Shown here: positions 6,261-60,555 of the stretch, one piece after another | Position numbering within the stretch: the stretch's first letter is position 1 | How the letters are laid out: every line of letters starts with the position of its first letter | NCBI GenBank assembly: GCA_963715305.1 | Contig: CAVQSB010000007.1 | Location: forward strand, 123,693 to 187,692 | Length of the DNA: 64,000 nucleotides | Reading direction: 5' to 3' | From: an uncultured Actinomycetota bacterium | Lineage (GTDB): Bacteria; Actinomycetota; Acidimicrobiia; Spongiisociales; UBA4744 | Made by a program: the position numbers and the translations under genes | The notes under the pieces: model-generated | Databases searched by the model: none | What the model was told of the DNA's origin: nothing | The model's input: the letters and a program-made list of their open reading frames with translations, nothing else

Positions 6261-6361
6261 GACGTCAGGATGTTAGGACTGGCGGCAAGGTTGGCGGCGG
6301 TTCGGGTGGTGAACCACTCCTGGGGCCCTATCACCGGGGCAGGTCATAGAATCCCCCCGTC

Positions 6362-7831
6362 ATGATTTCCGTACTCCTCGGCGCGCTTGGTGGGTTGTTG
6401 GTGTGGGTGGCCTTTCCTCCACTCGGCCTGGGGGCCGTCGTCTTCGTTGCGCCGGTGCCTCTCCTTCTCGGTGTGCGGAGGGCCTCGACCGGCCGTCAGG
6501 CCCTCCTCGTTGGGCTGGCTTTCGGGATTGGTTTCTTCGGACCGCTGCTGGAGTGGATCACCGAGATGGGTGTGATTGCCTGGGCGCCGTTGGTTGTGCT
6601 CGAAGCCTTGTTTCCGGCCGCGTTTGCGTGGATGGTCTTCCGGGTGCGCCATCGACCCGATTGGCAGTGGATGGGTGTTGTCGTCGGCGGTTGGGCCTTG
6701 ACCGAGCTTGCGCGATCGTATCTTCCGGTCGGAGGCTTCACGTGGGGATGGCTCGGGTACGCCGTCAGCGGCTTTGCCGGAGCCAGAGGGGCTGCGCAAT
6801 GGATCGGCGTGTCCGGGTGGACGGTGCTTACCATGCTGGTGGCGGGTGGTCTGGCCCTTTGGGTGGAGACCCGTCGTGGCGGAATCTGGGCGGCGGTTGG
6901 GGCGACCGGAGTGCTGGTGCTGGTGGTCGCGGGTGGAGTTTGGCCGGCCGTAGGCGACGGGCAGACCTTGCAGGTAGCCATCGTGCAAGGCAATAGTCCC
7001 TGCCCGGCGCAGCGGTGTGCCGACGAACGGAAGCTGATCACCCAAAGCCATCTCGATCTCACCCGGACGCTGCCGGCCGGCGAACTGGATCTGGTCGTGT
7101 GGCCGGAGAGTTCGACCGGGTATGCAACGGACCCCATCGATAACCCTGAGATCGCCGGCCAGATCGCAGACGAAGCAATCCGGCTGCAGAGCTACCTGCT
7201 GGTTGGGGGTGACCGCCCCGTCGACGATGAGCATTTTGCCAATGTCAATCTGCTCTTCGACCCCGAGGGACGCATCGTTGGCGAGTACCTCAAGACCCAT
7301 CCGGTGCCGTTCGGCGAGTACATCCCATGGCGTGCAGTGTTTGGATGGACGGAACAGTTCCGGGCTGCACCCAGGGACATGCTGCGCGGGGAAGGGCCCG
7401 TGGTTTTCTCAACCGAATGGGGTTCGCTCGGCTCAGTGATCTCCTTCGAAGGTGCGTTCGCCCGCATCATGCGGGGTCCCGTCCGAGACGGAGCGCAGCT
7501 GCTCGTCGTGGCGACGAATAACTCGAGTTACGGATTGGGACCGGCATCCGATCAGTTCATTGGCATGACCCGCATGCACGCCTCGGCATTGGGCGTCGAT
7601 GTGATCCACGCGGCTCTGACCGGGAGGTCAACGATCATTTCGGACAACGGCACGGTGGGTTCGGTTTCCGGTCTCTTTACGGCGGAGATCCTCACTGGGG
7701 AGGTCAGGGTTCGGGCGTCCGGCATGACCCTGTACACCACGCTCGGGGATTGGCCGTATCTTCTCGCCATCGTCTGGTTCTCCGGCGTTGTGGTTATGGC
7801 AGCGCGGGAGCGGGAGAAGACCCGGGTCTAG
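6362..7831 (+). CDS. lnt: Apolipoprotein N-acyltransferase
   Basis: 489 aa. It has an N-terminal multi-TM region and a CN-hydrolase domain (VVWPES...). The length is typical of Lnt. Confidence 0.85.
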   Translation: MISVLLGALGGLLVWVAFPPLGLGAVVFVAPVPLLLGVRRASTGRQALLVGLAFGIGFFGPLLEWITEMGVIAWAPLVVLEALFPAAFAWMVFRVRHRPDWQWMGVVVGGWALTELARSYLPVGGFTWGWLGYAVSGFAGARGAAQWIGVSGWTVLTMLVAGGLALWVETRRGGIWAAVGATGVLVLVVAGGVWPAVGDGQTLQVAIVQGNSPCPAQRCADERKLITQSHLDLTRTLPAGELDLVVWPESSTGYATDPIDNPEIAGQIADEAIRLQSYLLVGGDRPVDDEHFANVNLLFDPEGRIVGEYLKTHPVPFGEYIPWRAVFGWTEQFRAAPRDMLRGEGPVVFSTEWGSLGSVISFEGAFARIMRGPVRDGAQLLVVATNNSSYGLGPASDQFIGMTRMHASALGVDVIHAALTGRSTIISDNGTVGSVSGLFTAEILTGEVRVRASGMTLYTTLGDWPYLLAIVWFSGVVVMAAREREKTRV

Positions 7832-7850
7832 ACACCGAAAGGCCGCCATA

Positions 7851-7869
7851 CGGGCGGCCCTTCAGCGTC
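7851..7869 (+). terminator. GC hairpin ggccgcc-atacg-ggcggcc after lnt stop
   Basis: A 7-bp perfect stem lies 20 nt after the stop at 7831. Confidence 0.45.
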
Positions 7870-7898
7870 CGGTTCGAGGACTCGTGGCCCTCGCCAGG

Positions 7899-7920
7899 GA
7901 CATACCGGCACCGGTATGTC
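7899..7920. promoter_or_regulatory. Perfect 10-bp inverted repeat GACATACCGG-ca-CCGGTATGTC (candidate operator) ~300 bp upstream of the cytochrome gene
   Basis: The inverted repeat is read directly from the sequence. Confidence 0.3.
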
Positions 7921-8216
7921 TAGCAACCCTGGGTGCTGGGCGCGGGCGAGGTTGGAACGCCTGGTGGTCGCCGTTCCCTCAATGGTCGAAACGATCTGAC
8001 CGATACACCCGTTTGCGGGATTTAGCTCCCGCTTAACCGTGCCTTGGCAGACGGTTAGGTGCCGGTGCGGGAAGCTGAGCCGGGTCGGGGGATCTGCGTT
8101 GCCGGGAAGCGCCGCAATGAGCGTGAGGATGATCATGGCGCGATGGCCCAACCAATGTGGTGAGATAGCCGGAGGCTCTTCCAGCTCGCGCGCGACGCGA
8201 CGCGGCCGGGCCGGCG

Positions 8217-10013
8217 GTGTCGCTGACGCTGCTGCTCGTCCTGGGATCGGCGTTTGTTCTCCTGGCGCCCGGTGCGGAGGCCAAACAGAAGTTCATGTCG
8301 GGTTTCGCGCAGGCCTATCCCGCGGCTGCCGGCACTCCGCTCGACTCCTGCCTTCTCTGTCACACCAACCCGGTCAATCCCGGGGAAAACAACCTCAACA
8401 ACTACGGCAAGGACTGGGAAGACGGCGATTTCGGCGACAAGAACTACCTGGAGCCGGCGCTGGTCAATCGTGATTCCGATCGCGATGGAATACCGAACGG
8501 CCAGGAGATTCAGCAACTATCGCTCCCCGGTGATCCGTCGAGCATCGCACCGCCCACCACGACCACCACGGTGCCCGGTGCGCCTCCCAACGGGCAGGCT
8601 CTCTACGCCGCCCGGTGTTCTGTTTGTCATGGTCCCGGCGGCGGTGACCTGAGCGGAACGACCCGGGCGCGGTCGACCTTCATCACCATCACCCTCAACG
8701 GGCAGGGAGGGATGCCTCCGCAGTCGGGCCTTTCAACCGGAGAGGCTGGTGCCATCTGGGACTACGTGACCGGCACGGTCCCCGCCACGACGACGACTAC
8801 CCGGCCGGGAGCGACAACGGCGCCTGCCGGTGGCGCCACCGTGTGGGCACAACAGTGTGCTGCTTGCCACGGGGCCAACGGTGGGGATGTGGTTCCGACC
8901 AGCCGCAGCAATGCACAACTCGTTTCGATCGTCACCAACGGCGTTCCCGGGATGCGGGGCTTTCCCGAATTGGGAACCGCCCAGATCAGCAATGTGGCCG
9001 GCTACCTTCTCAGCCTGAGCGTCCCGCCGACCACCCAGCCCGGTGCCACGACCACAACAACTTCCCCACGGAGCGGTGCCGCCGTCTATGCAGCCAGTTG
9101 TGCTCTGTGCCACGGAGCGGACGGCGGCAATCTACGCGGCCACACGCTGAACCTGTCCCGGATCGTCTCGGCAACAAGCAACGGCGTTGGGACGATGAGC
9201 GGATACGCGAGCCGCCTCAGCGCCGCCGAGATCAATAATGTTGCTGTCTACGTCGCTTCGGTCGGCGCGAGCGCCGGTGTAACGACCACTACCGCGCCAC
9301 CGGGCAGTCCCCTCTCAGGGTCGATGCTGTATCAGCAGAATTGCTCCGCTTGTCACGGTCTCCACGGTGAAGGCGGCCCGGGGGGAGCGGTCGCCGGTAC
9401 GGCCCTGAGCCGTTCCCAAACGATTGGCGTCATCACCGGAGGAGCGAGCGGTATGCCCGGCTACGCCTCGCAACTATCTGCTGGGCAGATCGCCGCCGTG
9501 GCCGATCACGTCCTGGGAATCGCCGGCAGAGACATCGCGGCCGCCGACAGCGCTCCCGATAGAAGCGTGATACCAACGGAGCTCGTCGAAGGACATGCGC
9601 TGTTTGGTCGGTTCTGTGCGGCCTGTCACGGGGTCAACGGTGAAGGCGGATTGGGCGGTCCGGTTGCAGGTATCAACATCGCCGCCGACGAACTTGGCGA
9701 GATCATTCGAGCCGGGGTGGGCTCGATGCCCGGTTTTGCAGATCGGATGAGTGCTGCCGAGGTCGAAGCCCTGGTGGCGTATTCGCAAGCACTCGCCTCC
9801 GGACGGGAATTCGAGGTGGCCGACACCACCACGACGAGCGGGCAGGCGCCCACCCCACGAGACTCTGGTCCACAAGCCCTGGGGGTTTCCGAGCCCGACC
9901 CGTCGACCAGCCATTCAGCCTGGCCGGTCGTTGTGATTTCCCTGGTAGCCGGGCTCATCGCAACCGGCGCTGCTGTGCTCTGGGCGCGTTTGGGCCGCGA
10001 TCTCATCAACTGA
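8217..10013 (+). CDS. Six-heme c-type cytochrome: signal peptide, N-terminal CxxCH + DxDxDG Ca-binding-like segment, five tandem class-I cytochrome c domains separated by Thr/Pro linkers, C-terminal TM anchor
   Basis: GTG start. CxxCH motifs are CLLCH, CSVCH, CAACH, CALCH, CSACH and CAACH. Each repeat has a downstream GMP(G) Met-ligand region. Linkers are TTTTT/PP-rich. The C-terminus is hydrophobic (WPVVVISLVAGLIATGAAVLW). Confidence 0.8.
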   Translation: MSLTLLLVLGSAFVLLAPGAEAKQKFMSGFAQAYPAAAGTPLDSCLLCHTNPVNPGENNLNNYGKDWEDGDFGDKNYLEPALVNRDSDRDGIPNGQEIQQLSLPGDPSSIAPPTTTTTVPGAPPNGQALYAARCSVCHGPGGGDLSGTTRARSTFITITLNGQGGMPPQSGLSTGEAGAIWDYVTGTVPATTTTTRPGATTAPAGGATVWAQQCAACHGANGGDVVPTSRSNAQLVSIVTNGVPGMRGFPELGTAQISNVAGYLLSLSVPPTTQPGATTTTTSPRSGAAVYAASCALCHGADGGNLRGHTLNLSRIVSATSNGVGTMSGYASRLSAAEINNVAVYVASVGASAGVTTTTAPPGSPLSGSMLYQQNCSACHGLHGEGGPGGAVAGTALSRSQTIGVITGGASGMPGYASQLSAGQIAAVADHVLGIAGRDIAAADSAPDRSVIPTELVEGHALFGRFCAACHGVNGEGGLGGPVAGINIAADELGEIIRAGVGSMPGFADRMSAAEVEALVAYSQALASGREFEVADTTTTSGQAPTPRDSGPQALGVSEPDPSTSHSAWPVVVISLVAGLIATGAAVLWARLGRDLIN

Positions 10014-10065
10014 TCGGCGCACCTCCCGGCCGGGTCAACCTATCAACGCCTCGAGGTGTTGGGGA

Positions 10066-10750
10066 CTACTCCGTCTCGCACTCGGTGAGCGCCGCATCCA
10101 TAATGTCGATAGCCCGACCCAGTTCCTCCATCGTCGTGATCAAGGGGGGAATGAACCGGATCTCGTTGTCATCGGGTCCGCAGCCGATCACGAAAATTTC
10201 GGTTTCGAATGAGTACCGGGCTACGAAGCGTATCGCCTCTGCGTCCAGCTCGCGCGACTCGCGATCCTTGACCAGTTCGATCCCGATCATCAGACCAAGT
10301 CCCCGAACCTCACCATCGGTGCTGTGCGCGACCTGCATTTTGTTGAGCCGCTCAAAGGCGTGCGCCGACAGTAGCGAGCGTGAGGAAGGAGTCCCCCCAT
10401 GGTGTCGATGACGGCACCAACAGCGGCACAGGAGACCGGGTTGCCCCCGAAGGTATTCCGTGGGAGCCGACCAGCCATCGGTCCATGACCTCGGCGGACC
10501 CGCCGAGGATATTCGCTGTGAAGTTCAGAACTGCCGGCTCACTGTCCTTGACTGCGGCGGTGAGGTCATACCCGTGGAGATGCACTGAATCGGGGGGGGG
10601 GGGGGGGGGGGAATCGGATCGGACGCGGACTTCGATGGTGTCGCCTTGTGATACTTCCGCTCGTCGGACACCGCCCTCGACTGCACCACCCCGGACTCGA
10701 TAGCGACGTCGGTTCTGGTGTGATGCCTGTGCGGCAACCTCGACCGACAC
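10066..10750 (-). pseudogene. Remnant of a class-III (PLP) aminotransferase C-terminal ~230 aa, at least two frameshifts, N-terminal ~200 aa missing; contains poly-G tract
   Basis: Fragments in three frames: ...ILGGSAEVMD, ...TFGGNPVSCAAVGAVIDTMGG and ...FERLNKMQVAHSTDGEVRGLGLMIGIEL. Frame changes sit at C6 (10393-10398) and C5 (10444-10448) runs. Sequence 10612-10795 has no aminotransferase similarity. Confidence 0.6.
10592..10611. repeat. 20-nt poly-G homopolymer flanked by direct repeat gaatcgg
   Basis: The sequence is ctgaatc-G20-aatcggatcgg. On the minus strand it would encode PPPPPP. Confidence 0.9.
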
Positions 10751-10795
10751 TGAGGCAGCTACGGGTTGGTCGCCGAACCCATATGAGGTTCGGGC

Positions 10796-11812
10796 CTAGA
10801 CGAAACGAACACCATGATCCCGATCTGCCGTGACTTCTCCAATGACCCAGCTGCGGTGCCCATGGTTGGTGAATACGGCCTGAACGTCTGCGGCTCGCGC
10901 GGAAATCGCAATCACCGCGAAACCGATCCCCATGTTGAAGGTGCGAAACATCTCTTCTTCGGAAACCGAACCGAGGTCCTGGAGGTAACGGAAGATGGGA
11001 GGGACCGTCCAGGCCGTCCGGTCGACGATCGCGCCGCACCCGGCCGGCAAGATGCGGGGCAGATTTCCGGGGAGGGCTCCGCCGGTGATGTGGGCGAGTC
11101 CACGTACCGCTCCGGTTGCCACTGCGTCCAGGACGGCGGGGGCGTAGATCACGGACGGTTCGAGGAGAACCTCACCCACCGGGTTGCTACCACTGCACGG
11201 GCTTTCCAGGTCGACATCTTTGAGCACAGCCCGAACCAGCGAGAAACCGTTCGATCGCAGGTTGGGACTCTCGACTCCGATGATGGAATCGTTCGCTCCG
11301 ATCGATGTGCCCGTGATCTCCTCGCCTTCTTCGACGATCCCCAGGGCGGCACCGGCCAGGTCGAAGGCATCGGTCGCCATGACCCCAGGGTGAACGGCGG
11401 TCTCTCCCCCCAGCAGCGCGCAACCTGCCATTGAGCAACCCGCCGCCACCGACTCGATGAGGGTTTGATCCCGATCTGGCTGCAATGCTCCGACCGCGAG
11501 ATAGTCGACGAACGCGAGCGGGCGAGCCCCAACGGCCGCGAGGTCGTCGACGCACATCGCGACGAGATCGAATCCGAGGCCTGAGAAGCGATTGGTCGCG
11601 CGGGCCAGCTCGATCTTGGTCCCGACCCCGTCCGTGCTCATCATGAGCACCGGGTTCCGGTAACCGGCAGGAATCCGAATCCCGGCGGCGAACCCACCGA
11701 AACTGCCGACAACCTGGTCGCTCCAAGTCTGCTGCACGGCGGGGCCGATCCGCGCTACCAACTCGTCGGCTGCATCGAGATCGACGCCGGCTTCCCGATA
11801 GGTGGCCATCAC
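10796..11812 (-). CDS. purM: Phosphoribosylformylglycinamidine cyclo-ligase (AIR synthetase)
   Basis: 338 aa. PurM motifs are present (AGVDID-like N-terminus, GVGTK). Confidence 0.9.
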   Translation of the reverse strand: MMATYREAGVDLDAADELVARIGPAVQQTWSDQVVGSFGGFAAGIRIPAGYRNPVLMMSTDGVGTKIELARATNRFSGLGFDLVAMCVDDLAAVGARPLAFVDYLAVGALQPDRDQTLIESVAAGCSMAGCALLGGETAVHPGVMATDAFDLAGAALGIVEEGEEITGTSIGANDSIIGVESPNLRSNGFSLVRAVLKDVDLESPCSGSNPVGEVLLEPSVIYAPAVLDAVATGAVRGLAHITGGALPGNLPRILPAGCGAIVDRTAWTVPPIFRYLQDLGSVSEEEMFRTFNMGIGFAVIAISARAADVQAVFTNHGHRSWVIGEVTADRDHGVRFV

Positions 11813-13639: not shown

Positions 13640-15816
13640 TCACCCCATGCGGCGGGGGAGGGCGGTTCGCCACACGGAAGTCGCCTCTTTCAGGCTGACG
13701 AACGCTTCGCCCAACCGGATCTGATCTCCACCGAAGGTCCCAATGCGATGGATGGGCACTCCCGCTTTCATTGCCAAAGCCGCCACGGAGTCGGCGTGTT
13801 CCGGATCAACCGCAGCAATGAGTCGGTGGGGATCTTCAGCGAACCAGTTACCGGTCCATTCGGTGGTGACCCCGACACCGGACATCATGGCTACCTTGGC
13901 GACGGCCATTCCCAGGCCGCCTGTGGAGAGGTCGTGCAAGACAGGGGTCATGTCGGTGGTGGCCAGTTGGGTGGCCAGGCTCGTGAGGCGAATGGCCATG
14001 ACCGGGTCGGGCTCTGACGGACGGCCGCCGATCGTTTCCTCCACCACCTTCTGAAAGACGGTCCCGGCCACGTCGGTGGAGGTGGTGGGTCCGAGCAGCC
14101 ACAAGTCCATGCCGGAAGCTGCCCGGTCCAGACGCGGCGGATGTTCCGGGTACGGATCGGCCAGGCCGATCAGCCCGACGATCGGCGTTGGATAGATATC
14201 GACCCCATCCGTCTCGTTGTAGAAGGAGACGTTGCCGCCAACGACCGGTATCGCGAGGTGCTCACAAGCCTCCGAGATACCGTCGATCGTTTCGGAGAAC
14301 TGCCACATGACCTCGGGTTTCTCCGGATTCCCGAAGTTGAGGTTGTCGACGACGGCCATAGGCCGAGCCCCGGTCACAGCTACGTTGAGTGCAGCCTCGT
14401 AGACGAGGCGGGCACCGCCGCGCCGTGGATCCAGGTAGCAGCGACGACCATTACCGTCTGTCGTCCCGGCCAGCGCCTTCGTCGTTCCCTTGATACGCAG
14501 CAACGTGCCGTCGTGTCCCGGACCGATCACGGTGTTGAGGAACAACATGTGGTCGTACTGCTCGTAGACCCAGGCCGGGTCGGCCAGCGACGGGTCATCC
14601 AGAAGTGTCAACAATCCGGCTGCCACATCCGGTTGATCAACCGGCCGATTTCGCGCCCACACTTCATCGAGCCAATCCGGCCGCCGGAGAGGTCGGTGGT
14701 AGACCGGGGCATCCTCCGACAGCGACGCGGCCGGGACTTCTGCGACCAGCTCACCTCGTTCGAAGACCCGGAGCAGGCCGCCGGAGGAGACCGTCCCGAC
14801 GCGCTGACGCGTCGATTTCCCATTTGGCGGCGACGGCCAGGACTTCGTCGACGTCGGCGGGCGCAACGAACGCCATCATGCGTTCCTGCGATTCGGACAT
14901 CAGGAGTTCGGCCGGCGTCATGCCCGGCTCTCGCACATGAACTCGTCCCAGATCGACCTCCATGCCCATTCCCGATTTGGCGGCCGGTTCGGAGGTGGCG
15001 CAGGACAAGCCCGGCTGCTCCCAGGTCCTGAATGCCAACGACCAGGCCCCGCTCGTACAGTTCGAGGCACGCCTCGATCAGCTTCTTCTCCTCGAAGGGG
15101 TCGCCCACCTGGACGGACGGGCGTTTGGCCGTGCCGGCATCGTCGAAGCTCGCTGAGGCGAGGACGGAGGCGCCGCCGATACCGTCCCGTCCGGTGGCGG
15201 AACCAAGGAGAACAGCCTCGGTGCCTGCACCTCCCGATTCGGCAAGTACGAGTTGCTCGCGCCGGAGGATGCCGAGGGCCATCACGTTGACCAGCGGGTT
15301 GCCTGCGTAGCAATCCTCGAAGGCGATTTCACCGCCGACGGTCGGCACCCCTACCGCGTTTCCATATCCGGCGATTCCCGCGACGACGCCGGCCAGCAGG
15401 TAGCGGTTGTGAGCATCGTTGAGCGACCCGAAACGGATCTGATCCCATACGGCGATGGGCCTGGCTCCCATCGTGAACACATCGCGAAGAATGCCCCCCA
15501 CACCGGTGGCCGCACCCTGGTGAGGTTCGACGAACGACGGGTGATTGTGGGACTCGATCCGGAAGGCGGCCAGCCAGCCGTCGCCGAGATCGATGACACC
15601 GGCATTCTCGCCGGGACCGACCACCACCCACGGTGCCTCGGTGGGGAACCGCCCCAGGTGGGGACGGGAGGATTTGTACGAGCAATGCTCGGACCACATG
15701 ACCGAATACATGGCCAACTCGGCGTCCCGGGGAGGGCGGTCGAGGATGTCGCACACCGCCGCGTACTCGCCGTCGGTCATCCCGAGCGCCCGGTGGAGGG
15801 GTGTTTGGTCAGACAT
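13640..15816 (-). CDS. purL: Phosphoribosylformylglycinamidine synthase II (PurL); split by at least 2 frameshifts (~14795-14870 and ~14995-15040)
   Basis: ORFs 14608..15816, 14751..15038 and 13640..14866 together give a full-length PurL (…SEHCSYKSS…, …GLSCATSE…KWEID…, …VAEVPA…). Confidence 0.85.
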
Positions 15817-16508
15817 ACGCGGCGGTCATGCTCATGGCAAACGATTCCATCAGCACACGGCCGTCGGCCGACCCGAGCACCTGCTCGATGGCCCGCTCCG
15901 GATGCGGCATCAGACCGGCGACGTTGCCTGCGTCATTCGTGATGCCGGCTGTGTTGCCGAGCGATCCGTTCGGGTTGGCCTCGTCGGAGACCTCGCCCTG
16001 CCGGATCCGAATAGCGCAGCACGATTCGGCCGGAGCGGTCCATGCGGGCGAAGGTCGAAGGGTCGGTCGTATAGCTTCCCTCGTACGAATTGAGCGGCAG
16101 TTCGAGGACCTGTCCGATCCGGGCCGCCCGCGTCAAGATGGAGTCGGTCGAGGTGACCCGGAGATGAACCGGCCGGCAGATGAATCGGAGCCCGGCATTC
16201 TGCAGCAGAACTCCCGGTAGGAGACCGGCTTCGCAGAGGATTTGAAATCCGTTGCAGATACCGAGGACGGGGACACCCTTCGCGGCCAGACGTTCTACCT
16301 CTTTCATGACGGGTGAGAATCGGGCGATGGCACCGGTCCGGAGGTAGTCGCCGTGGGCGAAACCGCCCGGGAGAACGATCCCCGCGAAGGCACTCAGGTC
16401 GGTTTCGCGGTGCCAGACCAACTCGGCGTCAATGCCGACGGATGCCAGGGCATAGACGCTGTCGTGTTCGCAGTTGGTCCCCGGGAATACGACCACGGCC
16501 GCCTTCAC
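15809..16508 (-). CDS. purQ: Phosphoribosylformylglycinamidine synthase I, glutaminase subunit (PurQ); frameshift near 15990-16040
   Basis: GICNGFQ catalytic Cys. The C-terminal ...[30 protein letters not shown]... is in another frame. Its stop overlaps the purL ATG (ATGTCTGA). Confidence 0.85.
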
Positions 16509-16747
16509 TCCTGAACCACCACCTCGAAGTCTTCCATGACCGGATTGGCCAGCAGACGTTCACACATCGCTCGAACCTCAGCCTCAACGGCGTCGGGGTC
16601 GGTGCCCTGCACTTCCAGTTCGATGGTGCGATTGATCCGAACCTTCCCGACGTTCTCGTAGCCGAGGTCGCGTAGCGCTCGCGCCACGGTGGTTCCCTGT
16701 GGATCGGCAATGTCCGGGCGGCGGCGTATGTGAACCGTGACCTTCAT
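16505..16747 (-). CDS. purS: PurS subunit of FGAM synthase
   Basis: 80 aa (MKVTVHIRRRPDIADPQGTTVARALRDLGYENV...). Confidence 0.85.
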   Translation of the reverse strand: MKVTVHIRRRPDIADPQGTTVARALRDLGYENVGKVRINRTIELEVQGTDPDAVEAEVRAMCERLLANPVMEDFEVVVQE

Positions 16748-17627
16748 GCCGTGCCCGCCAGGTAGTCGTCGAATGGCCTGCCGACGATCCGCTCGTAGGC
16801 CTCCACGTAACGAGCCCGCGTACCGGCGATTACCTCGGCCGGGAGGCGAGGAGGCGGTGGGGAGTGGTCCCATCCGGTCGAGTCGAGCCAATCGCGCACG
16901 TACTGCTTGTCGAACGAAGGGACGGTCGGCCCGGCTCCCACTGGTCGACCGGCCAATAACGCGAGGAGTCGGCGAGTGAGTACCTCGTCGATCAGGACGA
17001 GGTCGCCCCCGACATGACCCGAATTCGAACTTGGTATCCGCCAGGATCACGCCCCGTCGGGCAGCGAACGTCGGAAGCTCGCAGGTAGATGTCGATCGAT
17101 CGGCGGCGCAACTCCTCGTACAGAGGCGTGCCGAGTTGCGTCCTCGCCTCGGCTTCCGTCAGGTTCTCGTCGTGGCCGGAGGCTGCTTTCGTGGCAGGTG
17201 TGAAGATCGGCGCCGGCAGTTGGTCGGCCATCTGGAGCCCGGCCGGGAGATGCTCGGTGGTCGGCCCGCCCCCGGCCCGGTACTCGCGCCAGGAAGATCC
17301 GTAGAGGTAGCCGCGCACGACGCATTCGACGGGAATGACGTCGGCTCTACGGACGATCATTGCCCGGCCCGCCAGCTCCGACCGCTGCTCATCGGTGATT
17401 CCGGAGAGGACGCTCAGGTCGCCGTCGATCATGTGATGCGGAACGTCCAGATAGTCGAACCAATGCAACGAGAGGCCGGTCAGCACACGGCCTTTGTCGG
17501 GGATCGGGTCGTCGAGGATGACGTCGTAGGCCGAGATGCGGTCGGTTGCGACGAAGAGCAGCCGGTCATCGTCGATCCGGTAGATCTCTCGGACTTTCCC
17601 CGATCCAACGTGGTCGAACGCCAGCAC
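16744..17627 (-). CDS. purC: SAICAR synthetase (PurC); at least 3 frameshifts (~16920-17060)
   Basis: Pieces: 16992..17627 (N-terminal two-thirds), ILADTKFEFG in ORF 16505..17050, and 16744..16956 (PSFDKQYVRDWL...EAYERI). Confidence 0.85.
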
Positions 17628-59804: not shown

Positions 59805-60552
59805 CTACTGCTGCAACACTGCTTCCAGGAATTTCTTGGTTCGCTCGTGCTGAGGGTTGAGCAGCACGTCGTCGGGGTGGCCATCCTCAACAACCACACC
59901 TTCGTCCATGAACACCACACGGTCGCCGACCTGTCGGGCAAAACCCATTTCGTGGGTGACCACCATCATGGTCATGCCTTCCTCGGCCAGTTTGCGCATG
60001 ACATCGAGAACTTCGCCCACCAGCTCAGGATCGAGGGCGCTGGTCGGCTCATCGAAGAGCATCATGTCCGGGTCCATCGAAAGTGATCGGGCGATGGCCA
60101 CTCGCTGCATCTGACCGCCTGAGAGGTTGATGGGGTACTCGTCGATCTTGTCGAGCATGCCAACTCTTTCCAACACAGCCCTGGCTTTCTCGTCGGCCTC
60201 ATGCTTCCGATCTATTCAGGACCTTCCGCTGGGCAATGGTCAGATTCTGCATGACCGTCAGGTGCGGGAAGAGGTTGAACTGTTGGAAGACCATGCCGAT
60301 GCGGGCGCGGACTGCGTCCACGTCGGTCTCGGGATCGGTGAGATCGATGCCCTCAACCAGCACCTTGCCGGAAGTAGGGACTTCCAGGAGGTTTACGCAT
60401 CGCAACAACGTCGACTTGCCCGACCCGGATGGTCCGATGACACACACCACCTCGCCGGCTTTGACCTGGAAATCGATGCCGCGCAGCACTTCGAGATCGC
60501 CGAAATACTTGTGGAGCTCCAGGATCTGAATGGGAGGAACGTTCTTATCCAT
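59805..60552 (-). CDS. Polar amino-acid ABC transporter ATP-binding protein (GlnQ-like); frameshift near 60185-60200
   Basis: The N-terminal half is ORF 60199..60552 (GPSGSGKST). The C-terminal half is ORF 59805..60176 ([25 protein letters not shown]). The junction ...[23 protein letters not shown] is in shifted frames. Confidence 0.8.
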
Positions 60553-60555
60553 GGT

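Follow-up and report, generated by a model that had tools for sequence, protein, structure and literature searches.

A G20 homopolymer in the remnant of purM-linked genes of an uncultured Actinomycetota bacterium: probable slippage in non-functional DNA, possibly a consensus error

Slipped-strand tracts, such as those of contingency loci or the 7C run of mycobacterial glpK, consist of a single nucleotide, have grown from a short run, and typically are 7-13 nt long. The G20 homopolymer considered here is equally pure, may have grown from a short run as well, and occurs in a phylum whose NucS repair leaves indels uncorrected (PMC7015689). Its length exceeds the ~7 nt or more that characterize the homopolymers of contingency loci, and it is far longer than slipped-strand tracts usually are. 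Contingency loci switch intact genes or promoters, whereas G20 is situated in neither an intact gene nor a promoter and hence is no switch; it lies in remnant DNA that appears to evolve neutrally. Long G runs in assemblies can also stem from two-colour Illumina sequencing, poly-G being the signature of the unlabelled G in this chemistry (PMC8002175). The run described here differs from such poly-G in that it is internal, has collinear flanks, constitutes a net insertion, and belongs to an indel-rich assembly. With bacterial pseudogenes that decay by deletion the locus shares a syntenic gene that is cut by kb-scale deletions and carries additional 1-nt deletions, the loss of codon-position bias, and the replacement of invariant residues. 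In contrast to general decay, only one locus of the comparable 12 kb is affected, and the palindromes present at both deletion junctions are not a standard feature of this process. Finally, the tract interrupts a member of a cupredoxin-like HxHGYD family, of which the fragment retains the motif along with the strands that precede it, but it is truncated at both ends and has gained five Pro residues in a loop that otherwise does not vary in length.

The features of the locus are given below by their positions in the window, which is the whole 64-kb stretch of DNA that was analysed.

10066 to 10510, minus strand: class-III aminotransferase remnant (last ~148 codons) of the syntenic gene
10489 to 10510: deletion junction 2, where ~1050 bp are absent (L081 1161-2210; L161 7027-8068)
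10511 to 10786, minus strand: internal fragment of gene X with cupredoxin-like HxHGYD domain (residues SYGFGDQPVAAS...VHLHGYDLTAAV...FTAN)
10592 to 10611: G20 homopolymer, G on the plus strand and C20 on the coding (minus) strand
10779 to 10794: deletion junction 1, where ~716 bp are absent (L081 173-888, the 5' two-thirds of X)
10796 to 11812, minus strand: purM (AIR synthase), intact, with the stop codon at 10796-10798; synteny anchor

The run comprises exactly 20 G (plus strand, ...cactgaatc-G20-aatcggatcgg...) and no other homopolymer of the window, which has a G+C content of 62.7% and does not contain a single N, exceeds 7 nt. Base composition leads one to expect ~9e-6 runs of this kind, and the longest run of G or C in related Acidimicrobiia loci (1.2 Mb) measures 8 nt, none reaching 9 nt or more, so that G20 is a real property of the sequence and far beyond chance. 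In these respects, the original prediction, which had singled out the run at 10592-10611 as exceptional and flanked by ctGAATC-G20-AATCGG, is borne out. All coding signal around the tract is on the minus strand, where it reads GAT TCC (CCC)x6 GAT TCA, i.e., Asp-Ser-Pro6-Asp-Ser, and a 132-codon ORF at 10352-10750 spans it. As CCC makes up 35% of the Pro codons, the probability of six identical CCC codons in a row is ~0.002 under local codon usage, and none of the 11 long ORFs checked in the window encodes a PPP run. Promoter-like sites, terminator-like sites, or Rfam families were not found at 9900-10900.

A search with the purM protein led to a 92%-identical relative, P0154, on contig L161, the DNA of which is 91.6-92.1% identical to the window over 12 kb. 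Both share the gene order purC-purS-purQ-purL-purF-purM-aminotransferase, followed by a convergent gene for a multihaem cytochrome c and by LNT. In L161, a 219-bp spacer and an intact aminotransferase of 425 aa come after purM. In the relatives L162 (86% DNA identity to the window over purF-purM) and L081 (78% over the purM 3' end), purM is followed by gene X, which encodes 343-354 aa with the cupredoxin-like domain at the C-terminal end, then by a leader and the aminotransferase. The intact aminotransferases of relatives comprise 425-447 aa and follow purM also in Acidimicrobiia at ~60% purM identity. Relatives obtained in a purM scan of GTDB reached at most 64% identity and were used for synteny, as they are too distant for a comparison of DNA.

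The window locus consists of a fragment of X joined to the final third of the aminotransferase gene, both left behind by two deletions. Whereas deletion 1 removed the beginning of X, deletion 2 took its 3' end, the leader together with the 20-codon small ORF contained in it, and ~280 codons from the start of the aminotransferase gene, and 279 bp of the window now replace 1042 bp of L161. X is nearly all gone from L161 too, via a different internal deletion that kept ~60 nt of the 5' end and ~15 nt of the 3' end. X was therefore lost separately in the sister lineage and appears to be dispensable in this clade. Junction 2 is located on a perfect palindrome with 9-bp arms and a 2-nt loop (CCTCGGCGG-ac-CCGCCGAGG, 10489-10508), and junction 1 on a palindrome with 7-bp arms, CCGAACC...GGTTCGG around CATATG (arms at 10773-10779 and 10787-10793). 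As hairpins cover 0.36% of the window for arms of at least 9 bp and 1.9% for arms of at least 7 bp, the chance that both deletion junctions fall on palindromes is roughly 1e-3 to 1e-4.

The aminotransferase remnant is recognized by Pfam PF00202 (E=7e-22, profile positions ~266/272-403) and is also supported by NCBIfam. It does not comprise the full-length (~400-residue) aminotransferase fold with the PLP-lysine region, and two 1-nt deletions, at ~10454 and ~10371, divide it among three frames. A decayed aminotransferase C-terminus had been proposed for 10066-10590, and the assignment as such is right, but the homology already ends at ~10498-10510. The tract thus is not situated at the point where the aminotransferase signal stops, as had been thought, since this signal ends 80-95 bp further to the left. 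Likewise, purM does not begin at 10796 but ends there, on the minus strand, and the fragment of X continues in the reading frame of purM after the purM stop.

To polarise the amino-acid differences that separate the window from L161, 6-10 outgroups were used, and ~143 codons of the remnant were counted, three junction codons being left out. In the remnant, 17 changes are window-derived and 3 are L161-derived (20 versus 3 if the junction codons are included), an asymmetry for which the binomial p is 0.003. The respective counts of window-derived and L161-derived changes are 9 and 9 for purM, 7 and 4 for purF, 16 and 16 for purL, and 8 and 10 for LNT. Expressed as a rate, window-derived changes affect 11.9% of the remnant versus 2.0% of purM, purF, purL, and LNT taken together (Fisher p=6e-8), while the rate of the aminotransferase on the L161 branch is normal (p=0.76). 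The changes derived in the window hit residues that are invariant in the outgroups, i.e., Pro to Leu twice, Gly to Asp, and Asp to Gly. At codon position 2, 10% of the remnant mismatches L161, versus 1.6-4.3% in the neighbouring genes, and at 12.3% the divergence of its DNA from L161 equals the intergenic level (11.7%). Constraint on the remnant is thus relaxed on the window branch. The remnant has drifted freely during much of the period after the separation from L161 and is a genuine pseudogene, not intact genes that were mis-assembled; had the assembly taken a shortcut across intact genes, such a pattern would not be seen. For the fragment of X, 14 window-unique and 14 L162-unique amino-acid changes in 87 codons and a dN/dS of 0.20 versus L081 were obtained, both values being of low power. 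When the distant L081 had been employed as sister, the remnant showed no acceleration and seemed to be under constraint, a result that was reversed with the closer L161, the resolution offered by L081 being too low. An apparent acceleration of purC and purQ was an artefact of out-of-frame translation, as a count by codon position at the DNA level made clear.

The tract itself lies within the fragment of X. The 276 nt at 10511-10786, on both sides of the run, encode one fragment, SYGFGDQPVAASVSVEV...RVRGGAVEGGVRRAEVSQGDTIEVRVRSDS-PPPPPP-DSVHLHGYDLTAAVKDSEPAVLNFTAN, which shows 59-63% amino-acid identity to the X proteins of L162 and L081. Compared with these, ~240 codons are missing at its beginning and ~22 at its end, and it has no N-terminal region or signal peptide. 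A first homology search with the tract-spanning ORF had returned two weak matches only, and in Pfam the fragment shows sub-threshold similarity to Cupredoxin_1 (PF13473) and Cu-oxidase_2; the family was recognized through a metagenome scan, which yielded at least 362 loci, and a profile search, which yielded 4836 cluster representatives at E <=1e-3. The sequence at 10612-10795, for which no similarity had been reported, encodes together with 10511-10591 a part of this cupredoxin-like domain. The family is very large and uncurated and consists of small secreted proteins with the invariant motif D-x-x-[DE]-x-V-H-x-H-G-Y-D, no model of Pfam or NCBIfam reaching threshold for it. The X proteins of the relatives (L081 149-1213; L162 1943-2974) possess in addition two N-terminal repeats with an EGHAHL...DG motif.

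In all 146 motif-carrying representatives of the family, the spacing of D-x-x-[D/E]-x-V before H-x-H-G-Y is fixed. Pro occupies the relevant position of the loop in 15 of the 146, and a PPP run in none of them. At the site of the tract, L081 has the codons GAC ACG CCT GAT TCG (D-T-P-D-S) and L162 the codons GAC TCC TCC GAT TCC (D-S-S-D-S). The window retains the residues of the motif, but its spacing is broken by five Pro, and the loop reads D-S-PPPPPP-D-S. The flanks of the tract are collinear and in frame with contiguous residues of the homologues, and not one flanking base is lost or duplicated. As the length of the loop is invariant, the flanks must have been adjacent ancestrally and nothing is missing between them, so that the tract amounts to a net gain of 15 nt. 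With respect to any homologue, it adds five Pro codons and keeps the frame, and none of the homologues from the homology, metagenome, and profile searches carries a similar poly-G or poly-Pro-like insertion. The direct repeat gaatcgg that had been noted around the run is not a duplication; it consists of the codon pairs GAT-TCC and GAT-TCA, which align to separate conserved Asp-Ser/Thr codons. An overlapping duplication at contig ends (GAATCGG twice) was rejected for the same reason, both copies being homologous to distinct codons.

Compared with L161, the window shows ~19 one-base indels in 12 kb, insertions and deletions alike, which are distributed over purC (4), purQ (2), purL (2), the aminotransferase remnant (2), the cytochrome gene (1), and intergenic DNA (the rest), and 11 of them break conserved genes. 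The type of indel is clustered by region, with insertions at 14804-17067 and deletions at 6307-10794, which suggests that few reads cover each position. Given that purL, purC, and purQ show no excess of substitutions, their frameshifts look like consensus errors of low coverage and not like pseudogenes. Such an indel-rich error profile probably resembles a long-read consensus and not an Illumina one, and the name of the sister contig, 'contig_37416', suggests a long-read assembler as well. In the window, single-base indels that break genes are located at ~460, ~3900, 8203, 14804, 15007, 15978, 16001, 16922, 16973, 17018, 17067, and ~35840, and the genes concerned are M3-peptidase-like, amidohydrolase-like, cytochrome c, purL, purQ, purC, and adenylosuccinate-lyase-like. 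In an assembly that is so prone to indels, neither the length of 20 nor the in-frame state of the run should be over-read.

On balance, we consider it somewhat more probable than any other account that the tract is a real genomic C:G homopolymer that has grown by slippage in a functionless gene remnant, its exact length being uncertain. Slippage as the process, and the presence of the run in cells rather than in reads alone, are what we infer from the data presented above. The ancestral order, which relatives retain, was purM, X (a secreted protein of 343-354 aa), a short leader, and the class-III aminotransferase. In the lineage of the window, one deletion removed the 5' two-thirds of X and another the DNA from the X 3' end through aminotransferase codon ~280, and the leftover at 10066-10795 appears to have drifted neutrally since about the split from the 92%-identical relative. 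Slipped-strand mispairing could then have lengthened a short C run at a Ser-Pro or Ser-Ser codon pair (TCC-CCC or TCC-TCC), and selection against a runaway homopolymer would be absent from this leftover. The site of the tract is C-rich in the relatives (TCC TCC in L162, ACG CCT in L081), and the presumed C5 seed (TCC CCC) would require a single T-to-C change. In Actinobacteria, mismatch repair by NucS leaves indels uncorrected, as established for Mycobacterium (PMC7015689), which makes a drift in run length plausible, presumably also in this organism. That the tract is found in ~720 bp (~1% of the window) of non-functional DNA, and there on C-rich codons, is predicted by slippage filtered through selection and not by a random artefact. 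Several findings count against slippage, i.e., real genomes of this group hardly ever contain G:C runs of 20, the fragment of X shows no clear excess of amino-acid change (at low power), and growth from ~5 to 20 requires many slippage steps. The in-frame state (+15 nt) has a chance of one in three and, given the indel errors, carries little weight. The tract most probably is without function; neither strand offers an intact ORF, a promoter, or a downstream gene that it could control.

The rival that has to be taken most seriously, possible though less probable, is that the run is a technical homopolymer artefact of a metagenome assembly that is prone to errors and probably based on long reads. 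The true sequence would then be short (TCC CCC or similar), and the extra ~15 bases would go back to a read that stalled or was mis-basecalled, or else to an error made in polishing, and would have survived because coverage was very low. The many single-base indel errors in conserved genes raise the prior for a technical anomaly of this kind, and their frequency, their clustering by region, and the style of the sister contig name (an indirect clue) are all in its favour, as is the absence of natural G:C runs this long from 1.2 Mb of relatives. The locus is also structurally variable among relatives, and such regions are where a metagenome consensus tends to be worst. However, the documented errors are all of plus or minus 1 nt, and +15 belongs to a different class; the placement of the run in that ~1% of functionless DNA, on a C-rich codon pair, is unlike a random error; and adapter remnants (Illumina, Nextera, 454, Ion, PacBio, ONT) were not found in a search for them. 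Moreover, homopolymers typically come out too short, not too long, in long-read basecalling. Much less probable is the explanation favoured in the original prediction, i.e., no-signal poly-G from a two-colour Illumina instrument (NextSeq/NovaSeq) or a join at a contig end, gap, or breakpoint, possibly with gap filler. The round length of 20 and the GAATC on either side of the run are what one would like to see for such an origin. Yet the flanks are contiguous within one domain, and the alignment of the region downstream of purM in L081 and L162, which had been put forward as a check for a breakpoint, shows them contiguous there as well. Dark cycles substitute bases, and only 5 nt fit between the flanks in the 146 homologues; according to de Bruijn graph reasoning, poly-G tails make contig ends or joins of a G run with a C run and not a collinear continuation. 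The indel-rich error profile is unlike that platform, and no N marks a gap. The related idea that G20 represents a recoded run of N or a Newbler-style gap of 20 N is unlikely, since the flanks abut in homologues.

A functional element is the reading to which we give the least credence, whether as a phase-variable contingency tract, a G-quadruplex that acts as a roadblock, or a poly-proline insertion under selection in a chimeric protein that is expressed. The run is in frame and spanned by the 132-codon ORF, G20 could in principle fold into a G-quadruplex, judging from its sequence, which trivially provides four or more stackable G runs, and the tract lies between convergent transcription units, the purM operon and the cytochrome c gene. 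For phase variation, which the original prediction had listed as an alternative, there would be no intact gene to act on, as the host ORF fuses two truncated domains, without signal peptide, the last strands of X, or the PLP-binding part, and only a convergent gene lies downstream. The remnant evolves neutrally, and a promoter-like site is absent from the surroundings (9900-10900). A poly-Pro linker, also suggested originally, is difficult to reconcile with six identical CCC codons (P ~0.002) and with a family loop that never varies in length, and no homologue has anything similar. Another account, which stays closer to the preferred reading of slippage in a functionless remnant and which we regard as unlikely, is a runaway expansion in a lineage devoid of indel repair, maybe seeded by a template switch, with the palindromic junctions hinting at losses by hairpin-associated break-and-join. 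If this were true, hardly any G:C mononucleotide tract of the phylum would be longer.

The terminal part of the run and its flank, GGGGGGAATC (10606-10615), are complementary in 9 of 10 positions to the native GAGTCCCCCC at 10389-10398. This latter sequence is a native G6 run of the aminotransferase 'MGGL' codons, ~200 nt away from the tract. It is speculative that the G6 copy at 10389-10398 has served as the template-switch seed of the C run.

Whichever of the two more probable origins applies, the feature is of an ordinary kind, be it a simple sequence that has expanded in junk DNA or an error of the consensus, and a new question would arise only if the palindromic junctions or the length of the tract prove reproducible. 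The locus provides a clean, small example of gene loss in which a conserved purM-linked aminotransferase and its neighbour have been lost to two deletions, leaving a homopolymer free to grow. Where conserved genes show about one frameshifting indel per kb, as in this assembly, oddities of a single sequence need support at the level of the reads, and the gene calls of purL, purC, and purQ are not to be read as pseudogenes.

Some observations concern the vicinity of the locus or other parts of the window. The ORFs at 59805-60215 and 60199-60555 (minus strand), which are in different frames, both match a single ABC-ATPase-like protein of relatives, and their boundary (60185-60225) contains AGATCGGAAG, the 10 nt with which the Illumina TruSeq adapter begins. 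This match does not extend further and probably is due to chance (~0.1 expected). In the relatives, a block of ~90 nt 5' of the aminotransferase (L161 7105-7200, L162 3005-3100, L081 1245-1340), which is deleted in the window, is ~93% conserved among lineages that are just 73-84% identical in purM. This leader block holds the conserved 20-codon small ORF MFRIARCVPRH(A/V/T)RRPLFAAP, and an Rfam search of the leader of the relatives gave no match. On the other side of the remnant, the plus strand encodes at 8217-10013 a protein of 598 aa with five CxxCH haem-binding motifs, Thr-rich (TTTT) linkers, and a C-terminal membrane anchor, which relative to its orthologue in L161 shows in-frame deletions of 12 nt and 9 nt, the latter corresponding to the unit of a tandem repeat.
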